A DNA stretch of 59,465 bases, filler included, from Catajapyx aquilonaris (taxonomy: Eukaryota), in the NCBI GenBank assembly GCA_000934665.2. It is 3 parts of 3 records of this genome, joined end to end, with 100 filler letters (N's around TTAATTAATTAA, not from the genome) between each part and the next. Parts side by side here need not be neighbours in the genome. Positions count along the whole stretch, not along the records: positions 39,666 to 59,465 come from JYFJ02006401.1; 2 more parts are not named here. One strand, 5' to 3'. This document shows, one piece after another, positions 8,791-59,465 of this stretch (position 1 is its first letter; the number at the start of each line of letters is the position of its first letter). The notes under the pieces are model-generated. The model was not told where the DNA came from. It did not search any database and was given only the letters and a program-made list of their open reading frames with translations. A program made the position numbers and the translations under genes.

Positions 8791-9805
8791 TCTCGAGTTC
8801 TACGATTTCTTATTAGTCTCATCTTGTAGCTTCAAAACAATACCGCAGATAGTAATTGTGGTGACAAAATGTTATCCCACCCCATCCTAAATTAACAAAC
8901 CCAAGCGCATGAAAATGAATGCAATAACACTTCTCTGCTGCAGGCTCAAAGAGAAGCATTTTCATTCATATGAAATTCATCTGTTCTTTGATGCACATTG
9001 GCCAACTTATTTGCAGGTCCGTACCTTGAGCTCAAAAATTACAAAGGAGCCTATAATTATGAGCCTTTTTGAGCTTTCCAACGCTATCAACCAAAATATT
9101 TGAGCTCGCTTCGTTCCCGAGATAAGAATATTGTGGTGCCAACTTCACGTCTACACCACCACTTTGAGCTCAAAATTTATACGCGTGCCCATAATTATGA
9201 GCATTTTATGAGCTTTCCAACGCAATCTATCACAAATTTTGAGCTCGTTTCATTCTCGAGATATGGACGTCCAAGTGTGCTGGGAATGGCGGTGCCAACT
9301 TCACGTCAACACCGCCACTTTGAGCTCAAAAATTACAAACGTGCTCATAATTATGAGCTTTTTTTGAGCTATTCAACGCAATCAAACAACAGTTTTGAGC
9401 TCGCTTCGTTCCCGAGATATCCACGTGCTAAGAATGTTGGTGACAACTTCACGTCAACACCAACACTTTGAGCTCAAAATTCATACCCATGATGTCCATG
9501 AAGCTGGCCCGACCCATTTATAATCCTGGTTAGATAAAAGAATACATATATCATTTGTTTTTTTGTTTACGTTTGTTTTGATGAACAAATCGTTTGCTTC
9601 GGAATGGATCCTTTGTTTTAAAAGAAAACACTGGGTGCTGCTAACTTCACGCAACCCGACCCATTCACTAAACTGATTTATGTGCTTCCGCAGTACTTTA
9701 GGGAAGATATCTTGGTTGCCCTTCTGTGGGAGCGACATAAGATACCCTGCCCATACTCCTTTGATCGGGGTAGTGTTTCTATAGACGCCTCGAACAGGGA
9801 ACAGT

Positions 9806-19730: not shown

Positions 19731-19830
19731 NNNNNNNNNNNNNNNNNNNNNNNNNNNNNNNNNNNNNNNNNNNNTTAATTAATTAANNNNNNNNNNNNNN
19801 NNNNNNNNNNNNNNNNNNNNNNNNNNNNNN
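19731..19830. other. Assembly gap with artificial spacer
   Basis: 44 N + TTAATTAATTAA (stops in all six frames) + 44 N. Confidence 0.97.

Positions 19831-22048: not shown

Positions 22049-22050
<2 letters not shown>

Positions 22051-22132
<82 letters not shown>

Positions 22133-31571: not shown

Positions 31572-31652
<81 letters not shown>
31572..31652. repeat. (ATT)n microsatellite
   Basis: ~27 perfect repeats. Confidence 0.95.
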
Positions 31653-32438: not shown

Positions 32439-32439
<1 letters not shown>

Positions 32440-32519
<80 letters not shown>

Positions 32520-32861
32520 TGCGGGTAGTGCTTCTGACCCCTTGGGTACAAACACTTTGACCTTTATTTATTTTTTATTGATCGATGTTACATTTTGGTG
32601 CCTATTCATTTGAAACGCCCGGGCCCACGGGATGACAGGAGGGGATGTGCAATGTGCAGTGCAAAGTTTCCATGATGGTACATAATTTGTGAACTCCCCG
32701 GGTGGATATGTCTAGCCTCTAGCGGAAATACCACCCGAGACAAAGCCAGAAACGACCCAACTCTGCCCTAGATGAAGGGGGTGTCCTCGGGCTGGGATCG
32801 AACCCGGGCCCTTAACATCCGTGGGTGCATACGTTACCGCAGCGCCACTCCGTCTCCCTCC
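32440..32861 (-). mobile_element. Full-length tRNA-derived SINE, family 1
   Basis: A box gtggcgctgcggtaac, B box ggttcgatccc, body shared with 47805-48184, (ATT)n tail. Confidence 0.85.
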
Positions 32862-38536: not shown

Positions 38537-38795
38537 GGGGAGGCGGAGTGGCGCTGCGGTACTAACGTATGCACCCGCGGATGTAAGGGTTCCGGGTTCG
38601 ATCCCAAGCCCGGGCTTTCCCCCCTTCATCTCATGCATAGTTGGGTCGTCTCTGGCTTCGTCTCGGGTGGAATCTCGGACAGACTAATCCATCACCCGGG
38701 GGAATTCACAAAATGTACCGTTTGAGACACTGCACTTGCACTTTGCACATCCCCTCCCAGTCACCCTTCCCTCGCTCGTGGTACCCGGGCGTTAC
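38537..38795 (+). mobile_element. SINE family 1, 3'-truncated
   Basis: ggggaggcggagtggcgctgcgg head, B box ggttcgatccc, conserved body, no tail. Confidence 0.8.
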
Positions 38796-38858
38796 GGAAA
38801 AGGACCAACGAAAAGCTTGTAGGCCTACACCTTAAAAAGCAATAAAGGTACTGTAGTA

Positions 38859-39061: not shown

Positions 39062-39062
<1 letters not shown>

Positions 39063-39143
<81 letters not shown>

Positions 39144-39565: not shown

Positions 39566-39665
39566 NNNNNNNNNNNNNNNNNNNNNNNNNNNNNNNNNNN
39601 NNNNNNNNNTTAATTAATTAANNNNNNNNNNNNNNNNNNNNNNNNNNNNNNNNNNNNNNNNNNNN
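39566..39665. other. Assembly gap with artificial spacer
   Basis: 44 N + TTAATTAATTAA + 44 N. Confidence 0.97.
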
Positions 39666-40153
39666 GCTTCCCCACCTTGGTCACATCCCGAAAGCCACCC
39701 TTCCGCACCGCCTCAGGGACGACCAATTTGATTTTCTGAGAAATCTCCGGGTCTGGAACCTCATCCACAAAATCGACCACCGCAGGGAACGACGGCTCAG
39801 CCCGCGGCAGGGACGGAAAGGCCCGAGCCACGTCGCGTCGGCGAAGGACGGTCCCACCCCCGGACCGGACACCTGGCGCTCCAACTCGCCCACCGCCGAC
39901 TGCGTACCCGCCGGACGGGCCCCAGCCTCCGCCATCCGATCCAGATCCCTGTTGACCTGTTGGGCATTCCGCAACGTCGCTGCAATAGCAGACAGCTCGG
40001 CCAACTTAACCTTGGTATCCGCGTGGGCCAACCTCTCCAAGCCCAACTGCTTCTCCCCAGCATGTACCCTGCTGAACATTACGGACATCAGGTCGCGAAT
40101 ACCCCCCAATGCCTCCAAAACCACAACTCTGTCTTCCAGGGAGAACGACACCT
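39666..40153 (-). mobile_element. 5' part of a non-LTR retrotransposon (ORF1-like), running into the gap
   Basis: Abrupt GC-rich segment with a coiled-coil-like ORF (39681-40151) and an apparent frameshift near SFAD; begins exactly at the 14-mer 40154-40167 inside a cadherin exon. Confidence 0.7.
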
Positions 40154-43100
40154 AAAAGCATTGGTCTGCGAGATAATTTCGTATCCAATAATAGAGTAGT
40201 TTCCTGGGAATAAGTAACATTATACTTTACATTTACACCATATTATACTTCCAAATGAAATAATCCAAGGGAATACGAAAAGGACTTTAAGTAATAGTAA
40301 ATTAATTTTAGAACCATATAAATTGCTATTGTTTTGGATTAATTTTTCAGGTTTAGTTGTCGATCTGCAGTAATTGAAACAAATCATGCTGATTATTTAA
40401 TCTGGGCAAATTTCAAATGAGTTAAACTCAGTCGACTGTTCTGTGCGCGTCTGCTGATTGTTGCCCGGTTTTGGCTTACTGCACCTTGATCCTTGTCGGT
40501 GGCTTGAATTTGAGTCAGGGAGGATCCATTGTTAGGATTTTCGTATATGCTGAAGTGAGTTTTTTCAGTCTCGTTGAAAACGGGATAATTGTCGTTCTCG
40601 TCATTTACAGTAATGTTGATCTGTAAATTAGAATGGAAGCAATTAGTTGATTAGATCAGTATGGGACTCGCATTATCTATCTAATAAGTTTTGATGGTAG
40701 ACCCTACTGGTATAATATACAGTACGGCACGTCGTAAACGTGATTGGACACTGGCCATTTCATGCGTAGAAAATAATTGTGCGGCCTTATGATTGAACGC
40801 ATTGTCATCCTTAGTTTCCCAGACAGGTTACATTCACATTTTGATGTCAGTATTTTGCCATTACAAGAGTAATCATATACCTGGACAGAATCCTGATATT
40901 TTCCATCCGACACGGTGAGATTGTAACAAAGGAAGGCGAATGTCTCCCTGTCGATGTTTGCGGCCACGAGGAGGTCAGCTGCGGTCTTTTTCTGGCTCAC
41001 TGTCAGCTTGACCAGGGAAGAGATATCCCCGGATGATTCGCAATCCTCGATTGACCAATCCAGATTCGGCTTTTCATCCTTGTCACTCGCTTCGAATGTG
41101 AAGATCTTCTGACCAACAGGGGAATTTTCGTCCACGTTCAAATCCTTCGCGTTGAATGACGATATCACCGGGGGGTTGTCGTTTATGTCGTCTATTTTTA
41201 CAGTCAGTGTACCTGCCAAATTAACGAGTAACCTTAATCACATAATTACGATTGCATGTTTGCAAGCCCGCATTATATAGCTAAGATAATTATTTCGTAT
41301 TATTTTCAACTGTTGCTTTCTGGTTGCTTTTGTAAAATTTTGCAATGGAATAGGTTAATCAATAATCATGCCTTTTCACTCGACAAAACCGGCTGTAAAC
41401 TTATGCCGGGCTTTTGTATGCAACGCAGGATATAATAAAAGTATATTGCCGTAAGACGAATGTAAGTATTACCGGTAACTGGCTATAGATTACCTGTAGC
41501 GGATGATGTCCCCAACACAGTGTTTTCATCCCGTACTTTTATGACTACAACGAGTGTATCTATTTCTTCCCTGTCCAGTTCAGGATTCAAAGACGTCATG
41601 ACTATTCCCTTAGCTTTATGTAGTCCATATTCTGAAGTTTGGTCTTCTGTCTTAATATCCACGCTCCTGTAATGGAATAATGTCAGTCCATGATGCTGAC
41701 GACGATGATCATTGTTGTCTTACCCTACGTAATTGCAGGTAGTGTTGTCCACAACGTCTCCTTGTTTAAGAGCATACGTGTGTGTCCAATCTATCGAGAA
41801 CATCAGTTTTGCTTCTGTGTCTTGGTCAGTAGCAGTGATACCGTCCGTGACAGTGTCCTCACTTGTTTGGTTCTCCTTCACGTGGAATTGAGTGTACGGC
41901 TGAAACATGGTGGCACAATTTTACCATCAATGGTCTCATTTATGATTTAAATGGTGCCTGTTAGTCTACGCGGTTTCGACCATTACCACTTTTATAATAG
42001 GCTGGGTGTCGTCCACATCTAAGGCGTCGATTATCAACTCCACTGAAGAAGACAAGCTTCCGGCTAGTCCATAGCTGTCTTTGGCAAGGATGGTCAACCG
42101 CATTTGTCTCATTGACGGTGTTTCGTAGTCAAACACGTTGTCTTGTATCACGGTGATTATTCCGGTTTTGTTATCAATTCCGAAGTTATCGTTATCCATC
42201 AGGGAGAATCTGCAAAAAAAATTATTGACGTTACATGCTAGGATGTTATTCAATCATGGCGAATCTGCTTAATAAAAGCACTAATAATATCACTGCTTGA
42301 GTAAAGGTTACACCATCCTGTATAATTGCAGTTCTGTAAAGAGTAGCGTACATGCAAGAAGGGCATATCATCAGTGAGGACAGTTCGCTACAATTGTGGT
42401 GTGATGTACACCACTTACCATCTTAAGCCGAAAATATTTATACGGATATTTAAGAATGGCTCTTGAGTATATCGGTACCCCTTTAAATGTTAGTTTCGAA
42501 TACCCTTATATCTTTATTAATGACCAACCCAAAGCACTTGGTTGATATTTGCAATCATTTCGCAACACTAAACAACAGGGATACAACTTTTTTTGGGATA
42601 AAAATGCACTAGGGACTCAGTCAATATTCATGACCTCGTTTTTCGAGAAAGTCTGGTATAAAATACGAATAGCATAACTTTGGTAAATGGAAACAGATCG
42701 TGAACGTGATCGTCTCACAAACACAGGAATACAGATAAACCAACAACTGTCACCTGATGCTGCTATTTCCGAATGTTTGGGTAGAGTCTCTGTCCATAGC
42801 AGACACCTGGAAGACTGTGCCTTTGGTGATGCTCTCGTTCACCTTCGTATCCTGATTTATCACAGCCCAAGAATTCAGGGGGGTTGTCGTTGATGTCCGT
42901 CAGGTCAATGGTCACTTCAGCTTCGGCTGTATGGCTACTGCTTCCCTCTTCTACGAAAACCATCTGCAAATAAAAATGGCATATGCTATACCTTGGACAG
43001 TGCAAGTGGAATGATGACCCACTGACTCTGAAAGTGATGTGTCGCCACTCTTCATCTTCGTAATCGAGCAGGGAGCTATTGATCACATTGAGAGAGAATG

Positions 43101-45220
43101 TGGCAGTGTTGAATCCGGTTGGGGGACTGATTTGAAACGCTGCTGTGTAGTCTGGACCGTCTGTATTTGTCTTCTCTAAGATGGCTTGAAAAGTACCGTT
43201 GATTCCCTGCATAAACGTGAAAGGTACGTAAGACATTTGGCCAGAGAAACGTACGGCACGGTTGATACTCACTGTGTCTGGATCCCACACAGTGACGGTC
43301 TTGTTGAATGGAATCGCAGACGAGAACTTCTCTGGTATGGTGGATGAAAAAGTCTCCTCCGTAGTGTGGTTAGGCAGGAACACAGGAGAGTTGTCGTCAA
43401 TATTTAGTATAGTAATTGAATAAGTAATGCTTATATTGTGAATAGGAGCCTCTATCTCAGCATAGGCCACCAGAGTCAAGGTGATGGCGGTCGAATTCAT
43501 GGTGTCAGCATCAATGTCCTTTGCCACGGTGATCACTCCCTCTGTAGGAGTACTGTTCAGGTAGAAGTAGTCCTCCTTGTTTCCTGAAAGTACAGAAAGT
43601 CTGATAGGAGTTGCACCTTTTGTGATTAAGAAATTAGCAATCATTGTTTATCAAACCTGCGCTTATGAAGTAGCCGATGGCGTAGTCCAATTCCACGTCG
43701 CCTCGCACTGCTTGTATAGTTGCCACTTCAGTACCCTGTCATTACAATGGAATATGTCATTGTGTAGAATGTTGCTTATTTTTTAAAATGTATGTACGAC
43801 CCTGATGCTGCGTGTGAATGTATAGTGAATGTTGAGCACAAATATTATGCATTTTGCTTATTATTTAATTCAGTAGTAATTGAGTAATGCTACTACCTGC
43901 TAAGACTTGGAAGACTCACATGGTGGGGTTTTCCATTCATTCGAATAGCACAACCTCAATAATCGAGTGTTCCCAACAATTACTCTCTCTCTATATTTAT
44001 GTACTGCACACGCACTTTAACCTGTAAGTCTGTAAGATTACTTACCACCGGTGTATTCTCAGCAACCATCACTGCAGGCTCGATGTGTTTCCACGTCGGA
44101 GGCATGTCTGGCTCGTCTTGCACCGACACAGACACGTCCACTGAGATGTTATGCAATTCTTGAGAGTCCTGAAAAATGAATATTTAGTTAGTTGTAACAA
44201 CCACAATTGTTATTAACAGACTGTCACATGCTCCATTCAACTCACAAATACAGTGATGTGCAGGAGGTGAAACTGTGACGTTTCGAAGTCCAGAGGTTTC
44301 ACAACACTTAACCATCCAGTGGAACTGTCCAGATGAAAGCAGTCCATCTCGCTGTCTTCCTCCTGAAAATACCAATAATACATTTGGCGAACGTCATCAA
44401 TGGAGATGTTCAAACGCTTCGTCCGTCTCCTCCATCGGGGAAAAATTCCACTTACTTTAAATGTAAGGCTGCACGTCAGATGCTTGTCCATGGTGTCAAC
44501 GTCAGTCGCTATGTACTGTACCCACTTAATAATTTTCTGCAGGAAAATGTGGAGATATGTAAAATAATCTGCTGTGTTTTACTATTGGACTCGACTCACT
44601 TGGTTTTCGTTAATTTTGAGGTTATTCTCGGATGACACCCACTGCGGCCGGTTGTCGTTTATGTCTTTGATATCTAGCCCAAAGAAGTCAATATGAGGAT
44701 TGAAGCTGACTGCAAAAGTCTTATCTGCTTGGTATTCGTAGTCGAGAGGTTGGCATGTCAAGCTCATGTTCGTAAGAACCGATAAAGTGTGACTAGGGAG
44801 CGGTCCACCATGATCTATTCCAGAGATGCTCGTAACAGTTGGAATATTGCCTGTAAATTGTGCGAATATGAGAAGAAACATCAAACCAGATGAAAATCAC
44901 TGTCAACCTCAGGTTTTTAAAAAAGCGAGTCTGACCAGTGAAATTTAACTTTGCCACAATCTTTATATCCAGGTCTTCTGGGATTGTGATAGTTAAACCA
45001 TCCTTGCTTATCGTGACCCCTTTCTCCGCAGCTTCAGGATCTTCTACGATCGGCGGGTTACCCCATTTAACTGAAACCACAGTAAATTAGCCACGGCTTC
45101 CCAACACTATGGTATTCAACACTTCCTCTACGTACATGGTTCGGCTTCACATCCGATCACAACAACGAGGCAGCAACACGCCAACACAAACCGACTTCCT
45201 CCAGCCATTGTTGAGGCCAT
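40154..45220 (-). pseudogene. BtR/Cad88C-type cadherin, 5' half (signal peptide plus EC repeats); frameshifted and LINE-interrupted
   Basis: GT-AG exons 45220-45136, 45070-44936, 44850-44600, 44536-44456, 44362-44246, 44168-44046, 43735-43657, 43583-43273, 43206-43027, 42963-42754, 42209-41987, 41899-41724, 41666-41494, 41212-40881, 40620-~40485, 40203-40154; DINDNPP, LDYE/LDRE and ATDxD motifs; phases agree except exon 10. Confidence 0.85.
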
Positions 45221-46996
45221 GGATTCCGTCACTATAAAGAGAAACTATATCTCTTTATGTCACCATCAAAACGCGTCAACCATTTAGAACGCACCTGAAG
45301 CTCTTGACGCACCAGGAAAATTTGCAATCAGTGTCCCTTCTTATCATCCTGTTTTGTTCACCTTGCTTTCACATATTGGTCAGACATGCACTCTGATAAG
45401 ATGACCACATTGCGGCAGATATTATTTGTTCATTCCATCTCAATTCAGTAAATTGTCTGAAAAGTTGTGGCTCGACCCCTTCCGATTTAACTGAAAAAAA
45501 TCTTGTAGGTTGCGATCCGTATCTTATTGCGAAATCCTAAAGTGGCGGCCGTTGGAATCAAATTTCACGGAGATATAGCAATGGAAATTTCAGCAATGAC
45601 GTCCATAGAAAGTATTTTTATCTGTTCATACCGTTCTCCCAACACCCACATGTTATATATTAAATGGAAGGTAATGCAGAGCGGAATAAGATGGTTACAA
45701 AATATTCTCCCTACCTCTACAAACGAAGTCGAAAATAATTCACACATTTATGTTCAAATCACTCTATATTCCCGATAGCCGTAACTCATAACATTATGAT
45801 TTTAACGAAGTGATATTTAGGATGTAGGGCAATCACCGTTGCTGATATGCACATGCAAAACTTCATTGTATGTACTAGGTCACGCTGGGCTGGAAATTTA
45901 AAAATCTCGAAAATACGAATCACCGCATTTTGCCTATATTCGACCTCAGATTCCCGATGTGGGACTAGACCGATTTTGACTTTGGTATGTCAATCGATTC
46001 CTTGGATCATCCCCTATTCAGAAATGCATAAACCATTCCTTACCCATGAACGATACCACCATGGAAACACTTATAATTCTCAAATCCAGTTTTTCTTACT
46101 GTCAATAATGGTCACAGTACTTTCAATAGGATAATTTGATCGTTTGTAAATATATTATAAGTGGTGTATCAATGTAAAACGTAACTACCGGAGAAATCAT
46201 TCGTTCCGATTCGTTCTCGGATTAAATGCGACATTAATACAGACACAAATCGGGAATTTTCTATCACCTGACCTTTGTCCTATAAATTAAGGCACAATTT
46301 ATACACAAAATGGAAAATCACTTTAATAGTCTCGTTACCCCTACAAAAAATATTATTATATCTTTCTTCGAGATCGGCCTGCATGTGGGTATAGAGTAGG
46401 GCACTACACAAGTAAATGGTGGGATTTCTCCTTCAAAAAAGAGTTTTTTTGCGCCTCAGTCGCATGATTTTGTTGCAAAGTCATTGGGGTTGCCAGTTGA
46501 TATCAACAAACTCGCGAGGTGTTCCCATGTGAAGTCAGCTTTACATGTCAAGGGTCTCCTAGAAAACATGCATTATAGTGTCTCACAATCATTTGAATCT
46601 GTTGTTGATGAAAGGAATAGTGATACAGACAATGTCTGACGTGAGTGCAATATTTTAAGTTTTATTAATAACTGGATGGACAATTACATATAGAAATATC
46701 CTGGTGATATGTTTGTCGTGTCAATACTACTGTGTAGTAAGTTTTTCGAAAAATCATGCTTACTCAGTGTCATTATCTCTGAAACTGATATGACCTTCAC
46801 CATTGCCATCCTCCACCATTGTGTCCTCTACCATTCCCATCAGAAGAGTACGTATCGTATTAATATTACCGAAGGAATCATAAAGTGACAAATTTTTGCT
46901 AGTATATGGAAGTGCGTTTTCGCCTTTTCCTGAGAAACTATAGAAATCATGATTTTTCCATACGATCTCTTCACTTGTCGTCAATCTTTAGTAGGC

Positions 46997-47801
46997 CTAC
47001 ACTACGTATATTGAACATGTCGTGCTGATATTCTGAATAGGCGCCTGTATCTCAGCATAAGCCACCAGAGTCAATGTGAATGCGGTGTCGGGGACAAGGT
47101 CCTTTGCCACGGTGATCACACCCTCTGTAGGAGTACTGATCAGCTGGAAGTAACCCTCCTCGTTTCCTGAAAGTACAGAAGAGAGAAAGAGAAAGAAGAG
47201 AGGAAGTACAGAAGAGAACCTTATGCAATGAGGAGTCAAGTGATCATTGTTTATCCAACCTGCTCTTATGAAGTATCCGATGCCATAGTCCAGGTCCACG
47301 TCGCCTCGCACTGCTGCTATTGTTTCCACTTCAGTACCCTGTCAATACAGTATAGCCGGGGGAGTTGGGAGGAATAATTGATATACCGTACACTGTACTC
47401 CCGATTATCCGTGCTAAATGAATGCACGGGTGTGCCCAGATAATCCAAAAATAGCTCTAGAAAAAGGAGCCATTCAGAGGCTTGAAATAAAATGATACAG
47501 TACATAGTCATAGTGTATACGTTGCTTTAAATCAGGTATAATCAAAATAATAAAACTTATCATATAGTTTTTTCCTGGATAAATCTGCTATATTTCTTTG
47601 TTTGCGAGACATACTGACATTCTTTCTGGCTTTTATTTCTAACTTTCGCTTTGTCGATGCACGGATAATCCGAACCCAGATAATCGGGATGACATTGTAT
47701 TTATAGTGAAAAGAAATGATGCAATTTTAGGCAAGTTTCCAGAGTGAATGTGGCAATGGTAACTGACAAATAATAATTAATATCATGTTTGTAGGCCTAC
47801 T

Positions 47802-47842
<41 letters not shown>

Positions 47843-49574
47843 CAACAATAATCCGGGTAGTGCACGAACTCATTACGAGTTATATGGCACGGACCTTTAT
47901 TATTACTCATATACAGTATACATTGGACCTGATGACGTAGCGCCCGGGCCCACGGGCAGGGTGACAGGCGGGGATGTGCAAGGTGCAGTGCAATGTCATT
48001 ATGTGGCCATTTTTAGTGAACTCCCCCGGGTGGTTTAGTCTGTTGGAAATACCACCCGAGACGAAGCCAGAGGTGACCCTGAACTCTGCACGAGATGAAG
48101 GGGGTGTCCCCGGGCTGGGATCGAACCCGGGACCTTAACATCCGTGGGCGCATACGTTACCGCAGCACCCCTCCACCTCCCCCATTTGTAGGCCTACTTA
48201 TGCGAGGTGTTACCTATATGCTGTAGTTACCGACAACTATACTGAGTCAGATTTTAAGTTATTTTGCCTGATTTATGCTTTCATTAGAAACGCATGCACG
48301 CAATAAACCAAGAGTATGAAATATGGTTCCACCTTTTTTGTAATTATTTCCATTTGTATAATAAGCCTGCGTAATAACCTTAGATTACTCACCACAGATG
48401 TATTATTAGCAATATTCACTGCAGGCTTGATGTGCTTCCAAATCGGAGACATGTCTGGTTCGTCTTGCACCCACACAGACACGTCCACTGAGATGCTGTG
48501 CAATTCTTGAGAGTCCTGAAAAATGAATATTTAGATAGTATGTTATAACAACCATAATATTATTAACAGACTGTCACATGCTCCATTCAACTCACAAATA
48601 CAGTGATGCGCAGGAGGTGAAACTGCGATGTTTCGAAGTCCAGAGGTTTCACAACACTTAACCATCCAGTGGAGCTGTCCAGATGAAAGCAGTCCATCTC
48701 GCTGTCTTCCTCCTGAAAACGCCAATAAATCCGGCGAACGTCATCAATGGATATGTTCAAATGCTTCGTCCGTCTCCTCCATCGGGAACAATTTCCACTT
48801 ACTTTAAATGTAAGGTTGTACGTCAGCTGCTTGTCCATGGTGTCAACGTCGGTCGCTTTGTACTGTACCCACTTAATAATTTTCTGCATGAAAATGTGGA
48901 GATACGTATGTAAAATAATCTGCTGTGTTTTGATATTGGACTCGACTCACTTGGTTTTCGTTAATTTTAAGGTGAGTCTCGAATGACACCCACTGCGGAG
49001 GGTTGTCATTGACGTCTTTGATATCCAGCCCAAAGAAATCTATCCCAGGATTAAACGTGACTGAAAAACTCTCATCCACTTGGGATTCGTAGTCGAGAGG
49101 TTTGCATGCCAACCTCTTGTCCGGAAGAACCCATAAAGTGTTACAAGGGAGCAAACTACCCGTATCTATTCCACTGATGATAGTAACTACTGGAGTATCG
49201 CCTATAAATTGCGAAAGCCTCATTAGCCAACCAGATGCAAATTCTCTGTCAATCGCAATTTTGTTTATAAAAAATGCTAGTCTGACCTGTAAAATTTAAC
49301 ATTGCCACAATTTCGATGTCCAGGTTTTCTGGGATTGTGATAGTGTCACCATACTTGTTTATCGTGACGCCTTTCTTCGCAGCTTCAGGATCTTCTAGAA
49401 TCGGCGGGTTACCCCATTGAACTGAAACCACCGTGAATTAGCCACTACCCACCGATACTATGACTGTAAATTTGTAATGCAATACTGCAAGTGCTTACAT
49501 TCTGCGGCCACACTTCCCAGCACAACAATGAGGCAGCACCAAATCAAGGCGACCCTAGTCTCTCCAACACCCAT
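46997..49574 (-). CDS. Truncated cadherin paralog, ~343 aa, signal peptide plus ~3 EC repeats, no TM (secreted form or pseudogene)
   Basis: Exons 49574-49499, 49421-49287, 49201-48951, 48883-48803, 48712-48596, 48515-48393, 47338-47260, 47166-46997; exons 2-7 have the same sizes as in the neighbouring copy; open frame to TAG at 46999-46997. Confidence 0.7.
47391..47697. mobile_element. Pogo/Tigger-like MITE in a cadherin intron
   Basis: TA-cactgtactcccgattatccg ... gataatcgggatgacattg-TA with subterminal gataatc repeats. Confidence 0.7.
47805..48184 (-). mobile_element. Full-length tRNA-derived SINE family 1 in a cadherin intron
   Basis: 17-bp TSD tttgtaggcctacttat (47788-47804, 48185-48201); B box ggttcgatccc and degenerate A box; (GTT)/(ATT) tail. 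Confidence 0.92.
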
Positions 49575-50212
49575 TGTTGTGGCAATGGATTTCTTCACTA
49601 AGGAGCAGAACCTTCTCCTTCCTTTCACCAGCAAAACATGCCAACAATTATTAGAACGCAGCTAGAGCAATAATAATTGATGATCCAGGAAAAAATGCGT
49701 ATCTGATATTGCAATCTGATATTTTCTTGTCAATATGATTGGGTCTTCTACGGTTTAGAGATACTGGCAGATAAGATGTAAATGTTCCAACATTGATTTG
49801 TGCAAAATCCACATTGTTATCTTTCATTTCCTGGTCACACGGAGCCTTGAGTTACATTACACTTTGCAATTATATGACAACTATCTGATAATGAAAGTTT
49901 ATCCTCTATGCAGAGTCTTTCAACTGGTGACAATGTCAGGGTTAATTGCTACAGTGTTCCTCCACCTAATATACAGGATAAGAGAGACAAATTTGAAATA
50001 TATCTTGTTGCTCCATCCAATGTAATCCATGCACCTTTCGGTCAGGTACCGGTATCTAGGGTAAAAGATATTCTGATGATCAAAAATGAAACAGCTGAGA
50101 AATTGCGTGAATTAATTGCGAGGGTTTCAGAGGCATCCTTATGAGTTACCCTCTCTGATAATATGTAGCCTACATTATGTTTCTTACGGCCTTAGAAGGA
50201 ATGATATTCGCC

Positions 50213-50296
<84 letters not shown>
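50213..50296. repeat. (ATT)n microsatellite
   Basis: ~28 repeats. Confidence 0.95.
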
Positions 50297-51040
50297 GGGG
50301 TGCTGGTTTTTATTTCCACTAAGCACATTTTCTTCAGCAATAATACATTGACCCTCTCTCCGAGTTTCTTCTCTGACCTTTTGAATTAGGAGACACCAAG
50401 GTCATATTATGAGTCAGTGGAATGACCCCTCATGCATTAATATTAATTGCCAGTGCCAGCGATTTTATCAGCAGTATTGTCAAACTGTCTCTCAACCGGT
50501 ACCGTAACGGTATTCTTTTTATCTTTAATATCTGACCTACACGTCAGGGTCCGAGAAGTTAGGTACAATGACCAGAGTTGACATTATTTTCTAATCGGTT
50601 TGATCCTATGAATAATTTATTTTTTAAAGCTAAGAAACATTTCAAGAAACATTCTCAAACTGTACGAACATTTTTACATGTATGGTCATGCCTGATTTGC
50701 GATGGAATTATTGTGATCTTCCTGTAAGTCCATTATGCTTGATTATGCTCTACGTTGATATAGTCAGGATATAGTCTACAGGTCACAATCATGTTAAGAA
50801 GGTACCGGTATAAGTCAGGATTGGGTATGATGATTTAAAAAATGATGCAAAATATGCTAGGCTAACGGCCAAGGCAAATGACCCTGTTGTCAATAAGTAT
50901 TCCCTATAGATACTACAGAGTTCCCATACTTCAAGCAGCTCGACAAGCAATTGAATTATTAAACCAAAGAGTCAGTGCACGAAGCAGTTAAGGTCAATGA
51001 TGAACATAAAAGGTGATGCCCTCCCTCTATTGGTAGTGTA

Positions 51041-51139
51041 CTATATCGCTCAAAAACATAGACGATTTTGCATTTGACTCAAGTGCAGCCTGAACTTGAA
51101 TCCTAAGCAAAATCGTCTCTATGTTTTTAAGCGATATAG
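51041..51139. repeat. Hairpin or small MITE remnant
   Basis: ctatatcgctcaaaaacatagacgattttgc / gcaaaatcgtctctatgtttttaagcgatatag. Confidence 0.75.
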
Positions 51140-51644
51140 GACATCGTCACCATAACAGCCAGTTTCCTTCAATGCAACTAACACACGCTGGAGGCACATC
51201 TGGAAATTTCACCCATTGTTGAAAAAACCCCGTCTAGACCGAATTTTGACACCCCCGTCTTTTAGGAAAGCATTTTCAACAGAAAGTTACTAAACGTACT
51301 AATTTTCCAGGAAAGCAATGCGTCACTAAAATGAATCGCGATAGATAAGCTCTGTATCACGGTTTCGTAATGTCTGCTCTCTGTACAAATATGGCAGGCC
51401 GAAAATGGAGGAAGATTGGCATGTTCATTGCACTTCACGCAGTATAAAGACCGCTACGATATCTACAGAGATCGTATCAATAATGCGTCACTCCAACGGA
51501 AACTATCGAACTACAAACCTAATAGTCGTGTCATATCGTCTAGGCTTCGACAGGTAGTTTCCAATAGACCGTCCAAACTTTGTCTACTTTTCAGAGGCCA
51601 TTACTCTATGAATTAGCTATTAGGCCATCAAAAGATCACGCGGA

Positions 51645-51680
51645 TATAAAGGGCTATTCTCTCTTGCATCGTGGCTCAGT
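51645..51680 (+). promoter_or_regulatory. TATA box plus arthropod-type initiator of the IR gene
   Basis: TATAAA 51645-51650 and TCAGT 51676-51680 at canonical spacing, 15 nt before the ATG, which is in a caacATGG context. Confidence 0.65.
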
Positions 51681-51695
51681 AGTCGCATCGCCAAC

Positions 51696-53633
51696 ATGGC
51701 TTGCAAGTGGGTTGTAATTCTGCTAACATACGTTTCTGCAGTCTCAGGGCTAAGTTTTAGTAACGAAATTCAAGAAGAGGAACATCTTGTGGCTGGACTG
51801 ATTGAAGAGGTGCATAGTCAACTAGGCGACTGCATACTTGTAGTTGCCCACGACTACACTGCACTTCCACCTCCAGTGGAATACATGATGAAACGAGTGG
51901 GAAAAACTGGGTCCGTGTTACCAATTCGGTGGACACCAGACACTCCACCTCCTCCGAGGAACAGAGGACCACCTCAGGACAGGGACTTTGAGAACTGGTT
52001 CTCTTGGTTGAACAGACCCACGGCCAAGAGAGTGTCTAACTGTGCAATGGTGGCCATTCTCTTCCGGTCCGAGGACCACTTGCAGCCTCTTCTGCACCAC
52101 ATGGCCAGCAAATTTCTGTTGAATACAGGATCAGACAAGTTCTTCTTCTGGAGCAGAGAGCCTGAAGTTGTGCGGAAAATCATGCTAGGTCCTGACACCA
52201 GCACTTTCTTGTTTCAACTTGGAGCAGAGAAGGACCAGGACTACATCAACATCCTGAGCAACTGCCATTACTGCAAGAAAGGCGAACCAGAGGTTGTGTC
52301 AGTTGGACAATTTCATGGAAAACACAAGCTGATGCTGTATGATGCTGAGATATACCCGGATTACACCAAGAATATGAACGGCAAACATCTGAACGGATCA
52401 TTTGTGTTTGACACGTCTCCTGGAGAAATTAAGTACTTGGTTGAGAGCTTCCTTCCCATGTTTCCGTTCCTGTTCTTTTTCGTGGATCTGGGAGAAGCCA
52501 TCAACTACAACTGGCATATGGAAGCTCCTCTTGAGGAAGAAGGTGTTGACCCTGAGACACAGCTGCCTGATGGAAACTGGACTGGAATGATGGGTTTGCT
52601 GGTGAACCAAAAATCAGAACTAGCTGGAGGAAGACCCTCAGCCGAAGCCTTACGAGTTGCAGATTTTCCTCAACCCCACATCATCACTTACATGTCTTTT
52701 GTCAGACGTGCATCTAAACCACTTTATTCGTGGAGACCTGTGATACAACCCTACACTCCTCAGATGTGGGGACTTATATTCCTGGCTATCCTAACCTGCA
52801 GTTTGTTCTTCTACCTTCTGCTCAGAGTGACTTACTTGATACGAAGCCCTGATGTCCCACCCCGTTCTCTAGTGTCATATTCGTGTCGCGTTGTGTTTTC
52901 CGCCCTCGTGGAGCAACATCCTGACAATTATCCGTCTGCTGGAGGACCTCGTGTCTTCGTCTGCTTTTGGTGGCTTTTCACCATGATCCTCATCTGTGGA
53001 TATGACGCCAGACTGATCGGGTTTCTGGCTCTGCCTGATATGGAGGTTCTTCCTAACGACTTCAAAGAAATGCTGGTACATCCTAACTGGCAGTGGGGAA
53101 TAGTTGGATTCATGAAGCCTTATTACCGTATGCTTGTGGAGGAATCGGAGTATAGTTCACACCATGAAATTACTCCCAAATTGCAGGACGGTGGGGATAT
53201 GCTGCAGTGCATGACACGGACTCTCAAAGAAGATTTCTCTTGCTTCGGAATCACAGAGTTGTTGGTGGCCATGTCGTACCAGTACATGGATCTGGAAGGA
53301 CGGTTTCCTTCTGAGATATCGCGTGAATCTTCACTCTTCTTGTTTGGAGGACTCGCTTTGCCCAAGCATTCTCTAATAACACCTATCGCGAACAGAATGG
53401 TTCTGTACAGTGGAAATTCCGGTCTGTATGTGAAGTACGACAATTACTTCAAGTACACGTGCATTTTGTTGGGAATGAAGGATGCCCGTAATGAGAACAG
53501 GTCATATAAATTTTCTATGGCTCTTCACTTAAGTCAGCTGAAAGGACCTCTGAACTTCTTCATGATATCCGCGTCTTTCGCTTTCCTTTGCCTTCTGTGT
53601 GAGATTTTCCATTATCGGGCGGCTAATAAGTAA
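51696..53633 (+). CDS. Divergent ionotropic receptor (IR, variant iGluR), intronless, 645 aa
   Basis: Signal peptide; S1 DGNWTGMMGLL..ELA; QPYTPQMW followed by TM1; RVFVCFWWLF..GYDARLIGFLALP TM; C-terminal LHLSQLKGP..LLCEIF TM. Confidence 0.92.
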   Translation: MACKWVVILLTYVSAVSGLSFSNEIQEEEHLVAGLIEEVHSQLGDCILVVAHDYTALPPPVEYMMKRVGKTGSVLPIRWTPDTPPPPRNRGPPQDRDFENWFSWLNRPTAKRVSNCAMVAILFRSEDHLQPLLHHMASKFLLNTGSDKFFFWSREPEVVRKIMLGPDTSTFLFQLGAEKDQDYINILSNCHYCKKGEPEVVSVGQFHGKHKLMLYDAEIYPDYTKNMNGKHLNGSFVFDTSPGEIKYLVESFLPMFPFLFFFVDLGEAINYNWHMEAPLEEEGVDPETQLPDGNWTGMMGLLVNQKSELAGGRPSAEALRVADFPQPHIITYMSFVRRASKPLYSWRPVIQPYTPQMWGLIFLAILTCSLFFYLLLRVTYLIRSPDVPPRSLVSYSCRVVFSALVEQHPDNYPSAGGPRVFVCFWWLFTMILICGYDARLIGFLALPDMEVLPNDFKEMLVHPNWQWGIVGFMKPYYRMLVEESEYSSHHEITPKLQDGGDMLQCMTRTLKEDFSCFGITELLVAMSYQYMDLEGRFPSEISRESSLFLFGGLALPKHSLITPIANRMVLYSGNSGLYVKYDNYFKYTCILLGMKDARNENRSYKFSMALHLSQLKGPLNFFMISASFAFLCLLCEIFHYRAANK

Positions 53634-54015
53634 TTTTGATTGATCTGCGGAAAATACCTGCATTATCACGTACACTGTTTTACTCGTAATGTACATGTAG
53701 GGATATGTGTTTTTCGACCTTTTCATTACCGCTTTACTTTTATCCCAAATTGAGCTTATTTTTGGATGGGAAGTGACAATTTTAAATAGTCGTATAGTAA
53801 ACATAATATTTTTAAATATGGTATATGAAAATTATTATCATAGAAGCACACTGTGTCTGTAGTTTTACTGATTAAATGTAGTGAAATAGATATTACCAGG
53901 AATTGCCGAATGAATATTTTACGCGAGAGAGGGCGACATTCGCGGGTACCATCTGCCATCTGGGTGAGTTACAATGAACCTGGCCTGTATGCAGTGTACA
54001 GAAACTTGTGTCTGA

Positions 54016-54021
54016 AATAAA
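54016..54021 (+). terminator. Candidate polyadenylation signal of the IR gene
   Basis: AATAAA ~380 nt after the stop, followed by T/GT-rich sequence. Confidence 0.5.
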
Positions 54022-55099
54022 AATGGTTACACATTTAACTGTCTTTTCTAATTTAATGCGTGTTTATTTTGTAACCTAGGGCATTGTGGTGTGCAGTATT
54101 GGCGTGCATGGTATGCTTTTACATATTCAGCTTCTTGATATATTAGTTTAAAGCATTACTTTTTGACAATATCATATAGAACCTGGGCGTGGATTATTTT
54201 TATGTGGATTTTACTTTCGGATTTTTTTGTTGGAAATATTGTCCACATTGTGGACAAATTATAGTGCCTGTCACTTTGGTCAATTTATATCATATCTGAC
54301 CATGATTCTAGGCAACTGTTTTATTTAAAAATTATTTTCCAATCCTAATAAAATGTCAATGATGATAATTAATACTGTCTCCTGTTTTAATTCCCCGCCG
54401 GTCTAATAGGCGCGATTGATTGAAATAGTGTGCTTATTTGCAAGTCGATATACAGTATAATTTATTAAAACTATTAGAGCCATGACGTCACATGACAGCA
54501 CTCTTGTGCTTATGATAAGTTTCATCGGGAATCAACGTTTTGGTGCCCGTTTAGTGCCGGATTGCATTACTGTAATGCAGGATTACTGTGGGTATAATGA
54601 TGTGATCCGCAATCTAATTTACGCGCAAGGTTACACATTATATTCGGTTACAAAAAGCCCCTTAATTTTATTATTAAAATAATGTTTATTTATACAACTG
54701 ATACAATACAGCTCTAAATTACGATAGTAAATACAATTTTATTTACATTTCATTTGAAAAGCATATGAATAGCATAATTAGGATAAATAATTACTAGATT
54801 ATAACCCTATTTAAAATAGGAAATGCAATATATACATGGAACCATATGCAAATCTGAATTTTCCCTTGATTTCATCTAGGTTGCCTCTGAAAATAAATAC
54901 AACACATTTTTCTCTGTTTTCTACCCATTTTATGACTCAGTCTCAAGAATTTAATGGATCACCCCCGTGATGAATTTCTATGGGATGCTTTGACGTGAAC
55001 TTACAGTATTGTTGTCAGATACATTCATGCAAAATACTTTCCACCAAAATACCAGCCATACACAATAATCAAATCAACTTATTTTACATGCCACATTTT

Positions 55100-58000
55100 T
55101 CAAAACAGAGTGAAATTGGAGTTAATTTCTCCCTCAGCTTCTTCAAAGTCATCTTGCGCGATCGGATTCACTGTGAAATTCCTGTCCATTCCAGGAGGCA
55201 GATCAGACTGAGCCATCAGGGGATTCATAGTAATCTGCCGGTTGTTCCCAAAACCAGGTGGTTCAGGCATAAAGTTGCCGTTGTCTTCGCGAAAACTTAA
55301 ATCTTGGCTGTCAGAATCGCCATCTGTTTGCGCCAAAGGATTTTTGTTGAATTTGTTTCCCATCCCAGGAGGCATGTCTGACTGGGAGTTGATCACAAGA
55401 GGGTTGTAAGACAACCTTCGATTGACAAATCCCGTAGGTTCGTCCTCATTACGCGTAGGTTCCTTCTTGTTCTTGTAGTTCTTGAACTCTGGGTTGTCTT
55501 CCACTCCAATCAGGACAGAATCTCCGCTGCTGATACTGAAAAGATAATGGGTTTAGTCCAACTTCCGACGTTACTTCATCTGTGACGTCAATTGTTCCTC
55601 TCCAGAAAATTCATCAGTAACAAAACGATCGTAATGACGTAAATTTGAATTTCTTAAAAATTGTGAGTTATTACCTGGCTGTGTCGAATCCTCCGCTCTT
55701 TTCATTTTGGTTGTAAACAGGGTTAGCTTCAATCGCATGTCTGTTGGTGTTTGGCAGGTTGACACCAAGTCTGTTCAGACCCGAATCCTGGGAGCCAAAA
55801 GTTGTTGTGGCCAGAGCTCGTACTCTTCTCTTCAACCTGGAATTGCAAGAATTAATCATATTCTTTGTGCACAACTTCAAGAGCAGTAACGAACATTCAT
55901 AATTTCCTGGGATTACGACAACTCTAATTACTCACTGGCTGGTTCTGAGGCAGTAGATCAGTATTAGAACAACGTCAAAGAGAGCGAAGATTCCACATGC
56001 AATGGCCAGACCCAGCTTCAAATCTAGTATGCTGTTAGACGTAGGAGGTTTGTGCTCGGGCTCGATATTGTCGTAAATCAAACCTTGACGGCTGAATAAT
56101 TCCGTCAGTTCAGACGCGGTTGTGCCTCCGTAGAATTTCCTGTCAACATCAAACAGTGTGAAAAAACACACATATTTGCAGATTAATGAAACTTACTGTA
56201 TAATAACCGAGGCGTCTATTGGTTTACTGGTGGACTTGTCGATGAAATGTATCTCGACTGAAGTCTTGGTGAAGTTTCCCCTGGATTCAATCTTGATGAT
56301 GTTGTCTACATCGCATGTTTCATCGAAAACTTTTTCCAAGATGTGAATGATCTGTATGGTATTAGAGTGATGTTAATGTTTGCTCCAATTGATTGGATTT
56401 CAGGTACTGATCTGCCTGTCTTAAATCAGCAAATTGTACAGGAACTATCAAAATATTGGATTTGACATCTCATTCAGTACATGCATACATTAAAGGCACG
56501 AAAAGCATACTTTCAATTAATAAGCTGCTCATTAGGAAACAGGCACATAAGAAACATGTGAACTTACATCCAATCGCTTGTTTTCGACCATTTGCAGCGA
56601 GTTTCTGAACGTTAGTAGTATTCGAGAGTCCACGTCGATGATGTATATTAGCACTTGCGCTGGCTTCTCGGACGTGTGGTTAGCTGGAATTATGCAGCAT
56701 TACGAGGTGAATTACATCCTAGCCATGATGTCTTTTACCTTTGTCAACTGCGGCAACGGAAAAGTTGAAGTGACCCTTCATGTCATTTTGGACGTAAAAA
56801 TGGAGGGTCACATAGCCGAACCCATTTGCTGACGACAAATTGAATGGCCTTTTTTCAGCAGCTTGGTCGTATCCTTTTCCTTGCCACTGAATTATGTCGT
56901 CAACTATGTAATATGTAGCTGAGTCGTTCAGATCAGGGTCGTAAGCCTGAGGTACAATAAATTTATTAGTGAATGTTAATACTCGATTGCGTCTTTGCAA
57001 ATAAATCAACTATGGTAAAATTCACCTTTATCTCCACGATTGGATGATCACTGTTCTGAGAATCGCCTGGAGCAACTCCTCCAGAAAACGTTTGGTTGAA
57101 GTAAGGAGGTTCGTCGTTTACGTCCTTAATCTAAAGGAACGAAGAATAATGAATTAATATCATTTTTTGCATGAATTTAAACTGTGTGAGTAATTTACAT
57201 ACTTTAATATGGACTAGGAGAAAACTGGAATTTGTAGAGTCGTATTTGGTGTGGTCTTTGCAGACACCCAGTTCATCACCAGAAGGGCAATTATTGCTGG
57301 CAAGTACTGCTAATTCATACGAGTCTTTTTTCTCTCGATCAAATTCTTGACTGTTGGTCAAATTTGTATTATGCAACGTGAAGTTCACACTGTCATTACC
57401 TGTAATGAAAAATAAAAACTGTAAAGAAGTCGCAAACAATTTTGGATTACTAAACTGTTACCTGTCATACAGTAACATACAATCTCGCCAGGGTTGGGAT
57501 CTTGTGCTTCCGGGATGTAGACGCTTTGAATTTCATTTTCTGAACAAAAAGAAAGCATTTAATAAAGCATTGTGTGTATGAGTATGTACAGTATATTATG
57601 ACATTTCTGACCTGTGATTTGCCTTGTAACTGAGCTGTCTACAAAATATGGGTCACTGGTTGAAGTGTTCAGAAGTAACAAGGTAAGTGCCGTGTAGTTA
57701 CTATATTGAATTTCAGTTCCATCATCCTTAACGATAATATTTAGCTGCAAAATTCAAAATACATAACTTAGAAGAAAATGTTATTACCAATTGAATTTTA
57801 TAGATTGACATTGATGAGTAATCTGACGATTCCACAAACACTTACTGCAAATTTGTTGGGGCCTATTTCTTCCAGCGACTTCGTTACAGTAATGGTTCCG
57901 GTGTTGTCGATCTGAAAGTAATTCCACGGGTCGAATCCCTCTTCTGAAATGACAATTGAAACATGAGTCGGTGCACTTTTAATCATCTATTGACAAGGCT

Positions 58001-58939
58001 TTTCAAGTGTTTGGCAAGGGAAAGCAATCTTTCATCCACCATTGACGATAGAAATACTGACCTGTATTGTTTCTGTAATAGTTGACTGTTCCGCCATCCT
58101 CGCAGTCTGCATCTGTTGCATGTATGGGAGGAACTATGTGTCCTTTCTGATCTGTCAGTGGTGTATTAACCGCATGTTCCTGTGATCAAGAAGGCAATGT
58201 CATTAATTTTCGATTGAATGTTTATTGTCACATATTAATTTTATAAGAGCACCAAATTACCCTTAGAATTGCAACTTCTTGATCAGGCGTCGATGGGAAC
58301 ACAATCTGTGGATAATTGTTGTTGATGTCATTCACTTTCACATGCTTTATGCAAGTTGTACTTTGCGACGGGGTACCTTCGTCTTGCAGCTGGAATCCAC
58401 TCAAAAATTTAAGTAAAAGTACGTGCGCAGAATATACAGTATTACTGATTGATGTTTGCTAGTAATGCAACTCACTTCAAGATAGATGTCGTAATTTCCG
58501 AAGCAGTTGAACACCTTCCCGGTGAACCAGATTTGTCCCACGTTTCCAGAAGTTGTGACCGTGAACACATCCTTTGCTTCCTCTGGTGGAATGTACTTGC
58601 CTTTGCATTTGGGATCCTCGTTCACAAGTGTCACTTTGCTTATGGAAAAGGTGACTGTACCGTTGTCTCCCAAGTCTGGGTCCGTGGCGTCAAGTGGGAT
58701 ACCGACTTGTGTGTGCTATTAAATCGAGTGCATGGACAATTATTTTTTAACTAATATGCGGAAGATGGAGGGAAACGTTCTTAACGATCTCCAAACAAAA
58801 ACACCCACCTCTGACGCGTCTTCTTGAACTCCTCCAAAAGTGTCGGTGCTGTTACAATCACTTAGAGAAGGAGGATTGTCATTTACATCCAGCAGGTATA
58901 TAAAGATTTTGGTCGTGTTTGTGTTGTGGGTACCTTAAA

Positions 58940-59022
<83 letters not shown>

Positions 59023-59158
59023 CCTAAATGGTGGTAATTGTCCGTGGCCGAAATTACTAGCGTCAGGTTAGGTTGTGTCTCCCGATCCAATGTCCCTCCA
59101 TTTTTGTAGAAGACGGTAATGTCTCCGGTGTCAGGATCAATGGCAAAAGCATTGGTCT
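55100..59158 (-). CDS. BtR/Cad88C-type cadherin, 3' half (EC repeats, membrane-proximal region, TM, cytoplasmic tail)
   Basis: Exons 59158-59024, 58933-58809, 58715-58476, 58389-58261, 58179-58062, 57943-57846, 57744-57612, 57539-57462, 57399-57203, 57130-57026, 56946-56739, 56683-56568, 56351-56197, 56139-55936 (TM), 55836-55675, 55535-55100; phases consistent; tail FGSQDSGLNRLG..PNTNRHAIEANPVYN..LIGVED resembles insect midgut BtR cadherins. Confidence 0.88.
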
Positions 59159-59465
59159 TAGTCAGATATTAACGGGGTTATTCCAGACCATGTAGGTCCT
59201 TAAACCCCGGGCCCCACATAGGGCCTATATCATCACTCTAAGTCCCTTTCATCGTGGTCCGCACAGGGGCGGACCACCCGTTCGCTTCCGAATCGAACCC
59301 AAGCCGTCATAGGGTCGAGACTCGACCATCGGGACGACACCCAGAGGAGCCGCCCGTCCCACGATCGATCCCGAACCCGTAAGGTCCGGAACTCGCCCCA
59401 ATCCCGTCCGACAGGCCTCTCGACTTCCGCCTGGTCACCCAGGCCTCCGTCGAGCCCCAAAGGGA
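59159..59465 (-). mobile_element. 3' end of a non-LTR retrotransposon abutting the cadherin exon
   Basis: GC-rich ORF end (stop at 59233), short 3' UTR with stem-loop potential, then the 14-mer at 59145-59158 identical to 40154-40167. Confidence 0.7.

Follow-up and report, generated by a model that had tools for sequence, protein, structure and literature searches.

Organization of the cadherin locus

The stretch of DNA analyzed here (the window; 59,465 nt from Catajapyx aquilonaris, assembly GCA_000934665.2) is composed of three contig stretches of 19,730, 19,735 and 19,800 nt, separated by 100-nt linkers (19731-19830 and 39566-39665) that each consist of 44 N, a 12-nt spacer and 44 N. The similar lengths of the stretches suggest unplaced contigs arranged according to size, the first of them perhaps truncated where the window begins. 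The third of these (39666-59465, 19.8 kb, JYFJ02006401.1) reaches from a linker to the window end and is occupied in its entirety by a cadherin locus, comprising a cadherin gene in two halves, an ionotropic receptor (IR) gene, a short cadherin paralog and, at the two contig ends, the parts of an inserted element resembling a long interspersed nuclear element (LINE). Read along the minus strand, the cadherin 3' half comes first (59158-55100) and the 5' half follows (45220-40168). This order had been described in an initial annotation of the sequence, and it was found as described, as were the IR gene and the short cadherin. The parts of the locus are most likely real, and their permuted order most likely is not. 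No cadherin or element sequence was found in the two other contigs of the window, which have only microsatellites and small repeats in common with the third and are treated as its unrelated neighbors. The features of the cadherin gene and of the element are as follows.

39666-40153, minus strand: 5' part of the putative retroelement (LINE-like, 5'-truncated), in cadherin sense, with an ORF1-like frame (ORF, open reading frame)
40154-40167, minus strand: left copy of the target-site duplication, 14 bp, or 12 bp if the final 2 nt of the element are its own
40168-45220, minus strand: exons 1-16a (codons 1-883) of cadherin copy A, its 5' half, with a frameshift at about 42843 in exon 10
54923-58269, minus strand: distal 3' part of the cadherin, from the end of exon 20 to exon 32 plus the 3' untranslated region (UTR), with the transmembrane and cytoplasmic exons
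58270-59144, minus strand: cadherin exons 16b/17-20, common to both copies, with an (ATT)27 intron at 58940-59020
59145-59158, minus strand: right copy of the target-site duplication, recognized by 14-mer identity and the empty-site joint
59159-59465, minus strand: 3' end of the element, GC 61%, at 55-100x baseline depth, with no poly(A) or tandem tail

The hand-curated exon model has 31 exons, one of which is divided at a 14-mer shared by the ends of the two halves, and 30 of its 30 introns are of the GT-AG type, with a median length of 85 nt. When the halves are joined at the 14-mer, with unknown bases put at the exon-10 frame break, they amount to 1,762 codons; the break at about 42843 is the sole one, there is no other stop, and phase is kept through the 14-mer. 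The claim that the halves join phase-consistently into a cadherin of about 1,760 aa bearing an exon-10 frameshift is thereby borne out. The distal 3' part contains zero stops or frameshifts in the exon model. The 90-nt intron at 58934-59023 is almost all (AAT)n between its splice sites.

The joined protein contains 10 cadherin linker motifs recognizable by pattern and one hydrophobic segment starting at residues 1537-1542. With its cytoplasmic exon 31 as the query, a HMMER search returned 61 proteins at E values up to 0.001; 10 of these were looked up, and all 9 that carried a name (AgCad1, AgCad1-like, cadherin-23-like, Fat-like or hypothetical) were from arthropods. A word-based homolog search with the same exon gave 6 candidates, none of which was scored. 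The joined cadherin could be aligned with 26 of 28 fetched proteins over 600 aa, the best alignment extending colinearly over residues 1-1663 at 30% identity. In a profile test the joined order was read as one domain and the assembled order as two, although the alignment behind the profile included the model and the test is therefore not independent evidence. On the features examined, the joined gene appears to belong with the BtR/AgCad1-type arthropod cadherins.

Target-site duplication and the inserted element

The 14-mer is found on the plus strand of the contig at 40154 and 59145 and nowhere else, with no minus-strand copy, as the initial annotation had stated; the match ends exactly on both sides, and its chance expectation is about 1e-4 in 19.8 kb. 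The contig ends beyond it are GC-rich (62% in the 5' part of the element and 61% in its 3' end, vs 40% in the contig core). The proposal that they are opposite sides of a single insertion was right; the target duplication is 14 bp long, and the empty site described below carries one copy of the 14-mer.

The ORF1-like frame carries a 5-bp duplication at about 39831, and family contigs without those 5 nt are present. Because contigs of the element family continue for 85-116 nt past 40153, at 8-9x the single-copy baseline, the copy in the window is truncated at its 5' end. Depth stands at 55-100x baseline in the 3' end vs 8-9x in the 5' part. A poly(A) or short tandem tail beside 59159 was looked for and not found; such tails are typical of LINEs but not universal. 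Several features expected of a retrotransposon without long terminal repeats are seen, namely a target duplication of variable length (14 bp here, single copy at the empty site), 5' truncation and a great excess of 3' ends over 5' parts. The element was initially called a LINE, and a 5'-truncated LINE remains the likely but unproven identification: the target duplication, the truncation and the 3'-end excess uphold it, whereas Pfam, a homolog search and Atlas returned zero matches to the element pieces, including for ORF1 and ORF2; these pieces are the two ends of the element, and its interior lies outside the window. The 3' end of the element is also fused elsewhere to an unrelated repeat resembling a short interspersed nuclear element (SINE; joint 47902>59157). 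A cadherin-specific element was considered and rejected on account of this joint and of the presence of about 55-100 copies.

Copy number across the locus

Five sequencing runs, none of them long-read, cover the stretch, four of them DNA runs from one sample and one a run from a second sample; all DNA evidence thus comes from a single sample, which is possibly the assembly's own source. The run contigs (not raw reads) of X1, X2 and X3 (DNA) and of X5 were compared with the whole contig at 90% likeness. X5 behaves as RNA, as its record lengths match exon sums (474 = 228+136+50+60; 576 = 91+125+240+120). The single-copy baseline comprised 14 depth values, from 12 of the 15 joints listed, on contigs of other loci that touch repeats present here; the 3 joints of the cadherin locus itself were excluded. 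Its mean depths in the three DNA runs were 34.8, 21.3 and 32.4. The description of the contig as gap-free holds in that the two halves lie inside one contig, but this contig starts after a linker, and two (TAA)n runs within it (50213-50296 and 58940-59020; 81-84 nt) are bridged by no run contig.

A junction from 59144 to 40154, with an overlap of 14 letters, was seen in 4 of the 4 runs examined (3 of 3 DNA runs and X5). This joint runs backward by 18,991 nt on the contig, as a wrap-around partial alignment, and corresponds to the site without the element; its DNA depth is 0.87, 1.01 and 1.57x baseline. The contig of the filled junction, in the two runs where it is separate, stands at 0.99 and 1.41x. 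The center of the locus, 51063-57726 (the IR gene and exons 23-32), is a single 6,664-nt run contig that shows 0-1 differences and stands at 1.09, 1.14 and 1.02x. Three spacers lie at 0.86-1.21x, exons 21-22 are also near 1x, and the distal 3' part is at 1.02-1.15x, single-copy at 90% likeness. Exons 21-32 and the IR gene are present in one copy only at this likeness. Around intron 22 (57697-57845), DNA contigs end at 57726 and 57816, and the depth between is slightly raised.

Depth over 39666-59465, which the initial annotation had asked to be checked, is about 1x in the center, 1.68-1.74x over the cadherin 5' half, where two versions are present, and 1.5-1.6x over exons 18-20 (58270-58929). 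Intron 10 exists in two separate versions, each near 1x, which sum to 1.97-2.30x. DNA and RNA contigs alike end at 58270; in exon 17, the filled form converges with the empty one. Two versions of exons 8-16 are seen, and exons 8-20 are shown to be in two copies; exons 1-7 probably are as well, as their summed depth, blurred by the short cadherin, points the same way. The filled copy, to which the 5' half in the window belongs, is called A, and the empty copy, the version seen in RNA, is called B. They are probably recent duplicates, a few percent apart. Since the empty junction is near 1x and the center single-copy, the duplication preceded the insertion, or only one copy was hit. A tandem duplication, as had been suggested, does underlie the pattern, but the duplicated unit is the 5' two-thirds of the cadherin and not the whole contig. 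Among the differences listed (40 of 196), the 20 exonic sites comprise 14 non-synonymous and 6 synonymous changes (p = 0.42 vs the neutral ratio), and the listed differences are not assignable to either copy. The short cadherin, taken as outgroup at 8 sites, was uninformative (3 as in A, 2 as in B, 3 neither or gap). Two blocks of intron 10, 42291-42417 (127 nt) and 42465-42659 (195 nt), occur in copy A and are missing from the other version.

Transcript evidence

At 15 of 15 listed exonic sites of the 5' half that X5 covers, its letters are those of the non-window version. X5 crosses the empty site in spliced form and is identical to the window in exon 19 and exon 32, a spliced record of 1,767 nt showing 0 differences across exon 32 and the UTR. 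A further record (59085-59465; 411 nt, depth 7.14) joins the 3' end of the element to exon 17, such that transcription of the broken copy seems to start in, or pass across, the element. X5 does not cover the IR gene or exons 1-4 of copy A, which is not evidence of their silence, and contig depth is in general a poor measure of expression.

Neighboring genes and other repeats

Three further features of the contig enter the interpretation.

46997-49574, minus strand: short cadherin paralog, 8 exons, 343 aa, open frame, transcript to about 46695
50213-50296, no strand assigned: (TAT)28 microsatellite, flanks at 0.86-1.14x, an alternative mis-join point
51624-53633, plus strand: IR gene (IR/iGluR-like), single exon, 669-aa stop-to-stop frame

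The IR gene matches Pfam Lig_chan (E 1e-10) and arthropod ionotropic receptor clusters of Atlas (at 0.97-0.98), and its depth of 1.02-1.14x makes it single-copy. The short cadherin has a hydrophobic N-terminus and ends ahead of any transmembrane segment. It shares 74% aa identity with copy A over 345 positions, with a ratio of non-synonymous to synonymous substitution rates (dN/dS) of 0.49. X5 covers it at 48951-49200 with 0 differences and at 46695-47165 with 3 differences and 3 gaps, in spliced form and at depths of 8-18. Rather than being a relic, the short cadherin may encode a fragment that is secreted. Copy A (44046-44650) and the short cadherin (48393-49000) are 85-98% alike over exons 4-6 including introns and 60-83% over most of exons 1-3, a pattern that suggests a gene-conversion tract. 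Intron 6 of the short cadherin holds a SINE-like element of about 400 nt (47788-48201) that has a (TTA)n tail and is flanked by a 17-bp target duplication; it is of very high copy number and occurs again at 32470-32858 and at 38537-38796.

Six (TAA)n runs are present in the window, all of 78-84 nt (22050-22131, 31572-31652, 32439-32519, 39062-39139, 50213-50296 and 58940-59020). Their uniform size suggests that they were capped by the assembler, and that the joins across them are not spanned by single sequences. Two small high-copy elements lie in the cadherin contig, one at 51037-51143 with 26-bp inverted arms (resembling a miniature inverted-repeat transposable element) and one at about 45510-46040, where depth is raised and an opposite-strand joint occurs. 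The first contig contains a 156-nt tandem repeat within a 470-nt inverted repeat (9023-9616 and 12144-12613; 90% alike, about 2.5 kb apart), which is possibly a transposon with long terminal inverted repeats.

A model for the permuted order

These observations allow a model in which the permuted order is an assembly chimera of a tandem cluster that contains an intact copy B and a broken copy A. In gene direction, the cluster would read copy B (exons 1-32), the IR gene on the opposite strand, the short cadherin (exons 1-8) and copy A (exons 1-20 at least). The LINE-like element would have entered exon 16 of copy A only, producing the 14-bp target duplication, and copy A would in addition have been frameshifted. 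With filled and empty inputs on one side and two outputs at 58270 on the other, exons 17-20, near-identical in A and B and containing the long (ATT)n intron, would form a two-in/two-out node for a short-read assembler. The assembler may have entered this node from the element end of A, left it along the distal exons of B, and continued through the IR gene and the short cadherin into the 5' half of A. Assembly would then have halted at the other end of the element, leaving a contig with the ends of a single insertion at its borders, their order swapped. The cross-over from A to B would fall within exon 17 and the (ATT)n intron or close to them. A cross-over at 58940-59020 is plausible because the flanks are two-copy and read pairs would be unable to separate the copies; the flanks of the other unbridged microsatellite (50213-50296) are single-copy. 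Raised depth and correlated differences within the repeat, with single depth between, are what a mis-assembled two-copy repeat presents, and this is the pattern observed at the locus.

We infer that the 5' half of B is the physical partner of the distal exons. If the element were instead paired with the distal exons, the 5' half of A would lie both upstream and downstream of them. Either single-copy flanks would then have to be wrongly joined at a second point, which is unlikely, or the segment would truly have been excised and re-integrated; no intact membrane-anchored copy would be left. The chimera would leave one full-length membrane-anchored copy intact, which is counted in its favor, as is the colinearity of the joined model with full-length homologs. 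Because the opposite pairing would need these extra steps, the chimera, with B joined to the distal exons, is judged probable, well above an even chance. Misassembly, which had been named beforehand as the case that would refute the initial interpretation, is now the leading explanation.

Several observations weigh against this model. The baseline derives from just 14 values among the joints listed, all on repeat-bearing contigs. Exons 18-20 lie below 2x and show 0 differences in X1 and X3. No DNA contig spans exon 17 to exon 21, such that the link from B to the distal exons was not observed, and the opposite pairing of element and distal exons fits the DNA depths equally well. The exon-10 frame of copy B is not visible among the differences listed. 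The junction of element and exon 17 itself occurs in X5. Further, exons 5-15 have an RNA depth of 2-6 per exonic base vs a flat 13-14 over exons 21-32, and the empty (5.98) and filled (7.14) forms together come to about 13-15, which is about equal to the downstream RNA depth. This step fits the entry of both forms into the same distal exons, although 3' bias could equally produce it.

If the model is correct, a BtR/AgCad1-type cadherin would recently have expanded in tandem; one of its copies would be dying and a short one, apparently secreted, would be expressed, a result of small biological weight. It would also serve as a caution that contig ends bearing the swapped sides of one insertion can arise from a partly duplicated gene, and that the empty-site junction and the depth profile together expose such chimeric contigs.

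Alternative explanations

An alternate scenario, which is unlikely, places the mis-join elsewhere. Copy A would be colinear and formerly full-length (short cadherin, A 5' half, element, A 3' half, IR gene), and the link from element to distal exons would be real. The wrong join would then connect the IR gene to the 5' half of A at the (TAT)28 microsatellite or at a small repeat at about 45500-46040 or 51040-51140, the flanking repeat copies having been collapsed and the locus cut out as a loop, while B would lie elsewhere and end or diverge after exon 20. Run contigs indeed never bridge 50205-50307, the X5 depth step at the insertion and the junction of element and exon 17 fit read-through into the distal exons, and the DNA depths are satisfied equally. 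However, the flanks of the microsatellite are single-copy (0.86-1.14x), so read pairs should join them properly, and the false join would need the opposite end of this very locus as its partner. In addition, the only membrane-anchored copy would be lost, yet exons 21-32 are free of lesions.

It is very unlikely that A and B are alleles, with the insertion heterozygous, the center hemizygous and the contig a mosaic of haplotypes. The roughly equal depths of the filled and empty forms, the presence of both junctions in the second sample as well and a divergence of a few percent would all be expected of alleles. However, the 14 baseline values, all taken at other loci, lie within a single band (27.6-40.8 in X1), none of them near double, and the 6,664-nt center shows 0-1 differences, which is the pattern of a sample that is homozygous or haploid. 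The swapped order would still require an additional mis-join.

A shade less probable again is a real circular permutation, in which a circle excised after the insertion was re-integrated by recombination with another copy of the element, so that the chromosome itself reads element, 3' half, IR gene, short cadherin, 5' half, element. Such an event would explain all assembled joins and the single-copy center; the element family, with 8-100 copies, offers landing sites; and the RNA depth step fits a 3'-half transcript driven by the element. With the same low probability, the 3' half would be transcribed from the element and the sister copy would provide only the first 20 exons. For this scenario, the segment must have been excised with its donor lost and must then have been re-integrated, and a copy B must exist separately whose match ends after exon 20. 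The published cases (PMC7450558) retain the donor and have microhomology junctions, whereas the center here is single-copy. If true, the locus would provide a retroelement-mediated circular permutation of an arthropod protein-coding gene, with a half-gene transcript driven by the element.

Least probable are the readings first offered for this locus, namely a unit of about 20 kb (LINE, cadherin 3' half, IR gene, short cadherin, cadherin 5' half) that was duplicated once the element was in place, an array that was collapsed, or a pair of paralogs with the element at the same site. The contig geometry alone fits them and a tandem duplication of some sort is real. However, all three would entail at least two filled junctions, and the first two also at least 2x depth over the center, whereas the filled junction is at 0.99-1.41x and the center at 1.02-1.14x. 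The empty junction, which a collapsed post-insertion array would lack, stands at 0.87-1.57x in DNA and occurs in every run examined. Only two versions of the 5' half are seen, and the 3' end of the element is not specific to this exon.

Comparison with known systems

Cattle color-sidedness is reportedly a segmental duplication that arose by way of a circular DNA intermediate. In circular-intermediate duplications, an A-B order becomes B-A, the donor is retained and the junctions show microhomology (PMC7450558). The cadherin locus resembles these in its reversed block order, but its center is single-copy and its ends are the target duplication of one retroelement.

The BtR/AgCad1 cadherin family has been outlined previously (PMC10337751), and its member PgCad1 is described (PMC4026531) as a protein of 1,735 aa encoded by 34 exons, in which 11 repeats are accompanied by a membrane-proximal region and one transmembrane segment. 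The joined gene is like PgCad1, BT-R1, BtR175 and AgCad1 in its length (1,762 vs 1,735 aa in PgCad1), exon number (31 vs 34) and single transmembrane segment; the membrane-proximal cytoplasmic exon is conserved, and colinearity extends over residues 1-1663 at up to 30% identity. It differs in that identity to the homologs found is just 25-31% and in forming a cluster of at least 3 copies with an interposed IR gene. Among the records listed by a literature search there was no paper on tandem copies of this cadherin, which does not establish them as unreported. Cadherins disrupted by retrotransposons are described from Bt-resistant moths, as in the CR1-1_Pg insertion of the pink bollworm r3 allele and an insertion in Heliothis virescens (PMC4026531). 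Here too a retroelement breaks a cadherin of the same family, although an element-free copy is expressed in the same sample and nothing ties the insertion to resistance or selection.

A close parallel for the assembled order is the mis-assembly by repeat collapse and rearrangement described by Phillippy et al. (2008; PMC2397507), where a two-copy repeat flanks unique sequence, the part in between ends up as a contig of its own, and raised repeat depth and correlated differences accompany the error, as at the present locus. Unlike those cases, the repeat here is part of a gene, and the insertion ends of one copy close the contig, thereby mimicking a circular permutation.

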